DNA of 52,840 nt, taken from IMG/VR virus record IMGVR_UViG_3300020202_000091, positions 1-52,840 of that record; one strand, written 5' to 3'. Under the pieces are notes generated by a model, which saw nothing but the letters and a program-made list of their open reading frames with translations, searched no databases and was not told the origin of the DNA. Within the stretch, counting starts at the first letter, position 1. Each line of letters begins with the position of its first letter. Origin of the DNA: a virus. Lineage: Duplodnaviria > Caudoviricetes. Positions 15,334 to 15,855 of this stretch are shown here, one piece after another. Made by a program: the position numbers and the translations under genes.

Positions 15334-15855
15334 TTATGAATTATTCTCCATTGCTATCATAGCCAATACCGGACCATTTTCTTCTGATGTGTACTCAGGG
15401 TGTCTTTGAATCGCCGCGATATAAGCTTGAGCTACTGGTGAATTTGGGTCTTCGATATCCGGGTATTTTTGGCGGACAATATTTTTACTTCTCTCTAATG
15501 TTGAGTTCTGATTTTTTGAATTTAATAATGCCGCAACTCCATTAGCCACTAGATTATAATTAGTGCTATTGTTGTTATTAGCTATTTGTCTGCCGAAGTT
15601 ATAGGCCTCCGACGGATTGTATCGATTTTGATGATAGCCATGTACTAAATTTCTGTATGAATAATTATACGATGGTTGTCTATACGTGTTTGTGTGCCAA
15701 CTTGTGAGATCTGCTCCCTGCGCAATATATGTTGTTGACCCATCGTCATTATTTGAAACGTAATTACCGGATGCATCTTGAGTTGTATAGCCAGCATATG
15801 CGGTAGCGCATATTAAAAAATTTGATAGCACTATTGAAATATTTTTAATCAGCAT
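15334..15855 (-). CDS. Secreted moron protein with C-terminal scaffold-like domain
   Basis: Signal peptide ending AYA; Asn/Tyr-rich middle; C-terminal segment aligns without gaps to the 51434-52246 product; AT-rich, opposite strand. Confidence 0.8.
   Translation of the reverse strand: MLIKNISIVLSNFLICATAYAGYTTQDASGNYVSNNDDGSTTYIAQGADLTSWHTNTYRQPSYNYSYRNLVHGYHQNRYNPSEAYNFGRQIANNNNSTNYNLVANGVAALLNSKNQNSTLERSKNIVRQKYPDIEDPNSPVAQAYIAAIQRHPEYTSEENGPVLAMIAMENNS

Follow-up and report, generated by a model that had tools for sequence, protein, structure and literature searches.

The subject of this analysis is a small gene of a tailed phage whose predicted product is exported and ends in a domain shared with a protein of the phage's head module. 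The window analysed is the whole of IMG/VR record IMGVR_UViG_3300020202_000091, a sequence of 52,840 bp that is rated 100% complete by CheckV and whose ends join. Judged by its gene content, which includes a tyrosine integrase (43235-44161; Phage_integrase, E = 3e-29), this 52.8-kb record is a temperate tailed phage. The small gene occupies positions 15334..15855 on the minus strand, stop codon included, and encodes a protein of 173 residues (P0001). It is the sole minus-strand gene between two plus-strand blocks, both of its flanking genes being on the plus strand. Its GC content is 37.2%, against 45.0% for the whole window and 46.4% for the second gene of interest, which lies at 51434..52246 on the plus strand and encodes an all-helical head-module protein of 270 residues (P0002). 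An earlier reading of the DNA from its letters alone (the sequence-only reading) had described both reading frames, the AT-richness of the small gene and its opposite orientation, and all of these were borne out.

BLASTP aligned residues 118-172 of the 173-residue protein with residues 140-194 of the 270-residue protein without gaps, at 26 identical and 38 positive positions out of 55 (60.5 bits, E = 5e-16). The earlier hand count of 26 identities over 53 ungapped positions was correct, and BLAST extends the match by two residues. The Smith-Waterman score of 142 compares with 29.5 ± 4.6 (maximum 56) for shuffled versions of one protein and 30.7 ± 4.8 for those of the other, and in neither direction did any of 2000 shuffles attain it (z ~24). 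The shared stretch excludes the C-terminal 76 residues of the 270-residue protein. At the DNA level, 28, 36 and 17 of the 55 codons agree at the first, second and third positions, and the same codon is used for only 7 of the 26 identical residues. On these figures, the similarity of the two domains is an old one, kept at the protein level, and not the product of a recent DNA duplication. The codon-position pattern is also the best available argument that the 173-codon frame is a real coding gene.

The 173-residue protein can be divided into four parts. Residues 1-21 (15793..15855, minus strand) form a predicted signal peptide with K4, a hydrophobic core at residues 6-20 and the sequence A-Y-A before G22. 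Sequence inspection and hydrophobicity scans found the features of a type I signal peptide: a positive n-region, a hydrophobic h-region (mean hydropathy of 2.32 in an 11-residue window) and small residues at -3 and -1 (A19 and A21). There is no lipobox, as the residue at -1 before C16 is I, and the hydrophobicity scan found no second hydrophobic segment that could invert the topology. Residues 22-53 (15697..15792, minus strand) hold the conserved N-terminal motif of the mature protein, which is predicted to form a small three-stranded beta sheet (AlphaFold2 strands 23-26, 32-35 and 41-43, at a predicted local distance difference test score, pLDDT, of only 50-74). Eleven columns of this motif, A28, S29, G30, D37, G39, T42, Q46, G47, L50, S52 and W53, are invariant in the alignment of the exported family (A3).

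Residues 54-117 (15505..15696, minus strand) form a linker rich in Asn, Tyr, Ser and Gln, as defined by composition and by the AlphaFold2 model; residues 44-117 contain 16 N and 8 Y, and N-x-S/T sites lie at residues 64, 95, 117 and 171. The model, built on a 43-row alignment (A4) with a mean pLDDT of 77.6, shows disorder at 44-80 and a long helix at 81-130, so that the first half of the linker is predicted to be disordered and the second to be the beginning of the helix; the helix call at 81-117 may be inflated by scaffold rows misaligned there in A4. The C-terminal domain, residues 118-172 (15340..15504, minus strand), is homologous to the core of the 270-residue family. Its helices 132-135, 140-151, 153-156 and 161-172 (pLDDT at least 95) mirror helices 154-157, 162-173, 176-179 and 183-198 of the 270-residue protein, with a pLDDT of at least 92 in both models, and the two proteins, predicted singly, thus show the same helix pattern in the shared domain. 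The ESM Atlas held no usable match for the 173-residue protein or for its relative P0040. In a wide VIA-align search the best hit of the 173-residue model was the pilotin InvH (Z 6.0, root-mean-square deviation 4.0, 69 residues), which is under the meaningful level for helical models. A spanin, with an N-terminal anchor and periplasmic helices, was considered and rejected: there is no lipoprotein partner open reading frame (ORF) and no lysis-gene context, and the protein is rich in N and Y, not charged.

The 270-residue protein belongs to the family that is the source of the domain. Its gene lies directly 3' of the portal gene (49040-51310; SU10_portal, E = 8.7e-6, below the Pfam cut-off), and the gene for the major capsid protein (MCP; 582-1502; Phage_capsid_4, E = 4.1e-17) is reached across the joined record ends. 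The order portal, 270-residue protein, 197-residue ORF, 179-residue ORF, MCP recurs as the same five-gene order in the related viral contig L003. The order also occurs in the very distant phage MW202601.1, where three hypothetical genes separate the MCP gene from the portal gene (annotated "head to tail connecting protein"). A word-based search collected 38 members of the family, 158-289 residues long, none of them named and none with a Pfam domain. The AlphaFold2 model (37 sequences, mean pLDDT 72.5) is all-helical but for one short hairpin: disorder covers residues 1-40, a long helix spans 107-152, a small bundle follows at 154-198 (pLDDT 92-97), and a C-terminal hairpin and two helices end the chain. 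The core domain, residues 140-194 (51851..52015, plus strand; pLDDT 92-97), is the stretch shared with the exported-type protein. It is the most conserved part of the family, with G183, P184, M188, M191 and E192 invariant and L186, A187 and R189 nearly so.

The sequence-only reading had called this protein a scaffold. The 270-residue protein itself has no Pfam, PHROG or NCBIfam match (best PDB sequence-profile E, 0.99), and a PHROG scan of 37 members gave weak, inconsistent matches in which no family was hit by more than 3 of the 37. Foldseek found nothing in PDB at E <= 0.001 for the model, and a single row at that threshold in BFVD, a weak match with TM-scores of at most 0.27; 8 of the top 50 BFVD rows are named "Scaffolding protein" and 1 "Capsid assembly protein". 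Judged by its position and character, as a charged, all-helical protein encoded between portal and MCP, it is probably, with a fair margin for error, a scaffolding protein.

The domain that the 173-residue protein shares with this head-module protein could suggest an action on heads under assembly, and the sequence-only reading had offered two such roles: a scaffold decoy that binds the capsid or portal of related phages, or an inner-membrane anchor for procapsids. Mimicry of this kind has a precedent in CpmB of SaPI1, which redirects assembly by resembling a scaffold (as outlined in PMC5644958). Both proposals meet the same obstacles in the 173-residue protein. The cleavable N-terminal signal peptide, as predicted, takes the domain out of the cytoplasm, where heads are assembled, and no second hydrophobic segment would bring it back; unless the signal peptide fails to function, an exported protein could not act on heads under assembly. 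The R-D pair of the LAMRDME motif of the head-module family is replaced by I-A in the three short exported members (P0001, P0053 and P0190), although R is kept in at least 90% of 37 aligned members of the 270-residue family, and the exported copies have thus altered a conserved and probably exposed residue pair. In the P22 scaffold, the C-terminal segment is the coat-binding part. By analogy, the 173-residue protein would lack the likeliest coat-binding part, the C-terminal segment of the 270-residue protein. A complex prediction of residues 96-200 of the 270-residue protein with residues 100-173 of the 173-residue protein, run twice without controls, scored 0.00 and carries no weight either way. 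Taken together, a decoy or anchor role is highly improbable.

Origin and distribution of the domain

The exported domain had been taken by the sequence-only reading for a copy of the phage's own, and the comparison with other phages contradicts this. Its identity is 63% to P0014 and P0015, which come from other phages, and 48% to the phage's own P0002; twelve further BLAST matches, the exported homologue P0053 and eleven domains of the head-module family, also outscore P0002. In a quick maximum-likelihood tree of 58 columns and 177 rows, most of whose forks are unsupported, P0001 pairs with P0053 at a Shimodaira-Hasegawa-like approximate likelihood ratio (SH-aLRT) of 86. In the same tree, the phage's own 270-residue protein sits in a separate, tight orthologue clade, and the exported protein falls outside it. 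As judged from these comparisons, the domain of the 173-residue protein was captured long ago and did not arise by recent copying of the phage's own gene. Two further proteins described below, P0145 and a CHAT protein, group elsewhere, in a clade of 35 rows (SH-aLRT 87), which weakly suggests that the domain was captured at least twice.

A profile built from the two window copies matched 161 of 1.84 billion cluster representatives at E <= 0.001, and 42 at E <= 1e-10; these 161 clusters define a new, unnamed domain. The 150 matches listed, out of the 161, were sorted by hydrophobic segments and domain position, and 24 also by reading of the sequence. Among these 150, 141 are head-module-type proteins or fragments; for the 141 matches in which the scan saw no hydrophobic segment, the median is 143 residues before the domain and 78 after it. 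The other 9 are exported or membrane proteins, 5 with the full domain and 4 with tandem half-domains. The domain is therefore, in the main, no widespread module unrelated to head assembly.

Three exported homologues share the full architecture of the 173-residue protein and are 35-40% identical to it: P0053 (170 residues), P0190 (171 residues) and P0040 (433 residues), the last with the domain in duplicate and extended at its C-terminus. All follow one plan: a signal-like N-terminus, a conserved motif that lies within mature residues 1-30, a linker of low complexity and finally the domain. The N-termini of all three open with a basic residue, after which a hydrophobic run leads up to small residues, in agreement with the signal peptide that the sequence-only reading had placed at the start of the phage protein. 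These relatives surfaced in the exhaustive profile search and in an alignment-seeded search of a set of 5.8 billion proteins, where they and the 173-residue protein were the only ones at E <= 0.01 among 7240 candidates. A word-based homologue search with the 173-residue protein found only itself among 37 candidates, and a scan of the A3 alignment against the collections viral_contigs, metagenome_contigs and genome_contigs returned no relative.

Outside this small family, P0145 consists of a signal peptide, the domain, one transmembrane (TM) segment and a tail. P0078, a CHAT domain protein of an Omnitrophota metagenome-assembled genome, has a CHAT domain at residues 66-339 (E = 9e-38), one TM segment near residue 366 and the phage-type domain at 718-769. 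As basic residues are more numerous before the TM segment than after it, the C-terminal part of P0078 is probably outside the cytoplasm. The genes upstream of P0078 (locus L018) encode an extracytoplasmic function (ECF)-type sigma factor (Sigma70_r4_2) and then a zf-HC2 anti-sigma factor. Directly after P0078 comes a 217-residue gene, a match to the defence candidate PDC-S31 (E = 6.9e-36), and then a gene for a UvrD/Schlafen-like helicase. Positions 27-5801 of L018 thus show an operon-like row of sigma, anti-sigma, CHAT-TM, PDC-S31 and helicase genes, the helicase with a B-box-like N-terminus, and this row may be a phage-sensing signalling or defence unit. The 217-residue ORF was also considered as the missing rest of a scaffold-like gene and rejected (hhalign probability 0.4%).

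The four tandem half-domain proteins, P0141, P0150, P0153 and P0155 (loci L016 and L017), are metagenome proteins with signal peptides and two tandem R-Y-P-x-L-x-D-P-N-S-E repeats, which remotely resemble the first two thirds of the phage domain. Against the head-module profile they give an hhalign probability of 85.5% (E = 5.7e-6, 42 columns). Their gene neighbours look cellular, and one of the genes adjoins an EamA transporter gene.

Genomic setting of the 173-residue gene

Comparison with related viral records points to an accessory status for the gene. All four related records hold a single copy of the domain, in the 270-residue-type gene. In G001, a relative that is 95% complete, an HNH-like gene fills the slot between the last structural gene and the gene for a membrane protein, the orthologue (50% identity) of the 567-residue protein encoded next to the 173-residue gene in the window. 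Since an HNH-like gene stands there in G001, the junction is best described as one that accepts insertions, the 173-residue gene being one of them. By the same comparison it is a lineage-specific accessory gene, moron-like in its absence from relatives and its deviant base composition. With a BLASTP E of 5e-16, absence from four of four relatives and a replaced slot in G001, the central proposal of the sequence-only reading, a head-module family domain in an exported accessory protein, is supported. HNH-like endonuclease genes at 7022-7465 and 4343-4759 of locus L021 (record G001) flank the membrane-protein and cupin genes of that relative, one of the two being the gene in the slot.

The multi-pass membrane protein of 567 residues (16096-17799, plus strand) ends in a helical part, and its gene diverges from the 173-residue gene across an AT-rich intergenic region of 240 bp (15856..16095). 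From about 16.1 kb onward runs a set of sugar-modification genes: cupin, epimerase and GT2 genes come after the 567-residue gene, and another GT2 gene and radical SAM genes lie further downstream. The sequence-only reading had spoken of neighbouring membrane glycosyltransferases. The glycan genes are there, and the label itself is unconfirmed for the 567-residue protein, which has no Pfam or NCBIfam glycosyltransferase match; at E <= 5, Pfam gave it and its G001 orthologue only a sub-threshold TPR. Within the intergenic region, the A/T-rich low-complexity tract at 16045-16086 matches short, unrelated contigs by the hundred in each of the four soil runs, with a summed depth of ~570-2900 compared with 3-13 elsewhere in runs X1 and X2.

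This neighbourhood raises the possibility that the 173-residue protein is a substrate or partner of the glycan-modification module, a glycosylated Ser/Thr/Asn-rich protein on the lysogen surface whose helical domain would be only a folding or oligomerisation unit. The divergent arrangement with the membrane protein gene, the glycan genes that follow it and the linker rich in N, S, T and Y with its four N-x-S/T sites all fit such a role. It is set back by the missing glycosyltransferase match of the 567-residue protein, by the opposite strands of the two genes and by G001, which has the membrane protein and lacks the small gene, so that the module does not depend on the latter. A glycan-related role appears improbable on this evidence.

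Several further features of the phage were recorded. The large terminase gene lies at 46976-48406 (Terminase_6N, E = 1.7e-12), and the tail proteins carry LamG domains. In the head module, the 197-residue ORF at 52243-52836 has no family match and has counterparts of 229 residues in L003 and 149 residues in MW202601.1. The 179-residue ORF at 33-572, directly upstream of the MCP gene, is rich in Gly, Ala and Asn and has no Pfam, PHROG or NCBIfam match; where it lies and what it is composed of suggest a head protein of the decoration type. Past the gene for the large LamG-bearing tail protein, at 11639-15252, the plus strand carries four ORFs in a row, each of ~280-350 residues. They abound in Q, N, G, A and S, have no family matches and are possible candidates for internal or ejection proteins. 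ORFs of like composition occupy the same place in G001, the last of them without a detectable match.

The phage has, by the searches made, no near relative among GenBank phage records. INPHARED, which holds these records, gave no match to the 4-kb region, the 173-residue protein or the 270-residue protein, and the portal protein matched three records only, at 22-27% identity. DNA near-identical to the phage is present in soil metagenome runs, and it is taken to be a soil phage. For the region 14800-16400, DNA contigs of runs X1 and X2 (X1 being possibly the source run and X2 from a second study) show 0 differences from the window, and runs X3 and X4 contain only short pieces. No RNA run is listed for this region, which counts neither for nor against expression. 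With zero variation between the X1 and X2 contigs and the window at the 173-residue gene, there is nothing from which to read selection.

Proposed role of the exported protein

The architecture of the 173-residue protein leads to a reading that we prefer, and hold at an even balance of belief and doubt: the protein would act in the envelope of the lysogen, using a co-opted helical association module outside the cytoplasm, and not in head assembly. The protein would be Sec-exported by its cleavable signal peptide, which would leave a mature chain of a beta motif, a flexible Asn/Tyr-rich linker, and a long helix with a helical bundle. The bundle is a diverged homologue of the conserved core of the ~270-residue family that is encoded directly after the portal gene, captured long ago and now part of a small family of exported proteins. 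Expressed from the prophage, this core would serve as a protein-protein association module, binding itself or a partner outside the cytoplasm. The protein would then have a surface- or entry-related role in the envelope, with superinfection exclusion, and hence an effect on other phages, as the leading guess. An envelope association module is the most economical explanation because all full-domain settings outside the head module are predicted to be extracytoplasmic and because the conserved residue pair has been changed.

A number of observations weigh against this reading. The signal peptide of the 173-residue protein was judged by eye only, and the protein has no match in Pfam, PHROG, NCBIfam or PADLOC, so that no known exclusion or defence family is recognised; PADLOC in particular matched 0 families at E <= 0.01 for P0001, P0040, P0053 and P0145. 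Expression signals are faint. There is no Shine-Dalgarno-like motif before the ATG, compared with 17 of 28 genes checked that have one. The promoter scan of the intergenic region found 3 sites against 3.8 ± 1.9 in shuffles, no excess, with one sigma-70-like site on the minus strand (15967-15939). A hairpin right after the stop codon with a U-rich stretch (15301..15332, minus strand; RNA folding) is a possible terminator, weak at -14.4 kcal/mol (z -1.96, with 9 of 200 shuffles equally stable) and not picked up by a consensus terminator scan. The mostly unsupported forks of the tree, the occurrence of the CHAT fusion in 1 of 401 genomes of the phylum searched, and the unproven scaffold role of the 270-residue protein add to these points.

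The faint expression signals and low GC also fit a quite different origin, in which the gene is a decaying or silent remnant, a foreign scaffold-like fragment fused by chance to a hydrophobic N-terminus and without function. The extreme rarity of the family, four clusters in 5.8 billion proteins, would be expected of such a relic. Its intact 173-codon frame would not, nor would the concentration of substitutions at third codon positions or the presence of an identical sequence in contigs of the second study (X2). Moreover, signal peptide, N-terminal motif and domain have all been retained in the three homologues, which are 35-40% identical. A functionless remnant is accordingly very improbable.

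A bolder version of the envelope reading gives the domain a defined target. It would be a module for homotypic recognition of a phage protein that enters the periplasm at infection, used by the prophage as a bait and by the bacterial CHAT-TM protein as a sensor of the same protein. The exported copy would then poison the entry apparatus of related phages, and the 270-residue family would include ejected proteins. This version draws on the CHAT context and on the precedent of P22 SieA (as outlined in PMC10883804), and it would require the 270-residue family to reach the periplasm; we consider it rather unlikely.

Stated as a mechanism, members of the 270-residue family would be, instead of scaffolds or in addition to that role, internal head proteins that are ejected into the periplasm at infection and with which the exported copy of related phages co-assembles, blocking DNA delivery in a Sie-like manner, while the CHAT-TM protein senses the same protein. 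That every full-domain setting outside the head module is predicted to be extracytoplasmic speaks for it, as does the position of the CHAT fusion, which adjoins the PDC-S31 defence-candidate and helicase genes and comes after an ECF sigma/anti-sigma pair. SieA, a prophage envelope protein that acts on ejection proteins (as outlined in PMC10883804), offers a parallel, and 2 of 37 family members weakly match the PHROG "internal head protein" (best E 1.2e-4). The place of the 270-residue gene, after the portal and before the MCP, is on the other hand the classic scaffold position, and the candidate ejection genes lie elsewhere, in the stretch 11639-15252, without family matches. The PHROG matches are weak and inconsistent, with at most 3 of 37 members for any family. 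The near-invariant R of LAMRDME and the D that follows it are lost in the exported copy, which argues against faithful mimicry. A periplasmic bait of this kind is unlikely.

Exported proteins are a common product of phage accessory genes, and satellites are known to mimic scaffolds within the cell; for reuse of a head-module protein's conserved core in membrane proteins or exported ones, keyword searches of the literature brought up no described case. The tree points, with weak support, to reuse of the domain outside the head module in at least two lineages. One is a phage accessory gene family, and the other includes a bacterial CHAT protease fusion beside defence-candidate genes. If the domain recognises phage proteins, this would be a testable route from structural-gene fragments to parts for exclusion or immune sensing. 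If the bait and sensor roles are both real, a fragment of a head-module protein would act as bait in exclusion and, in the host, as an immune sensor. Should the domain be no more than a helical association module, the case would still be a clean one of domain flow from virion genes to envelope proteins.

Comparison with known systems

The internal scaffolds of tailed phages, such as P22 gp8 and T7 gp9, are the closest counterparts of the 270-residue protein. Like theirs, its gene follows the portal gene and precedes the MCP gene, and the protein is charged and all-helical with a disordered N-terminus. Unlike them, it has no sequence or profile match to a named scaffold family (TM-scores at most 0.27), and two further genes, of 197 and 179 residues, separate it from the MCP gene. 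The 173-residue protein departs further, sharing only the core and being, by prediction, exported; to our knowledge, no described phage scaffold is exported.

CpmB, an alternative scaffold encoded by the SaPI1 satellite, is cytoplasmic and competes with the helper scaffold for its site on the capsid protein (as outlined in PMC5644958). The likeness, drawn from its description only, is that of a mobile-element accessory protein that resembles part of a phage scaffolding protein (as outlined in PMC5644958). The 173-residue protein differs from it by its signal peptide and by sharing the core of the family and not the C-terminal end. It is therefore not a mimic of the CpmB type, which would be cytoplasmic and share the capsid-binding end of the scaffold.

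The lambdoid morons lom and bor encode exported proteins. They have no homology to the 173-residue protein, and the promoter and terminator evidence for its gene is weak. The resemblance lies in the genetics: a stand-alone gene of deviant GC content that borders the late operon, is missing in close relatives and has a product predicted to be exported.

T4 Imm and Sp, Tuc2009 Sie2009, T5 Llp and phi80 Cor are superinfection-exclusion envelope proteins, and we know of no report of a structural-gene domain in any of these or in SieA, nor did keyword searches bring one up. SieA itself is a superinfection-exclusion envelope protein of the P22 prophage that acts on ejection proteins (as outlined in PMC10883804). 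Unlike these proteins, the 173-residue protein matches no defence or exclusion model (0 in PADLOC). Like SieA-type exclusion proteins, it is encoded by a small prophage gene outside the core modules of a temperate phage, and its product is predicted to reside in the envelope.

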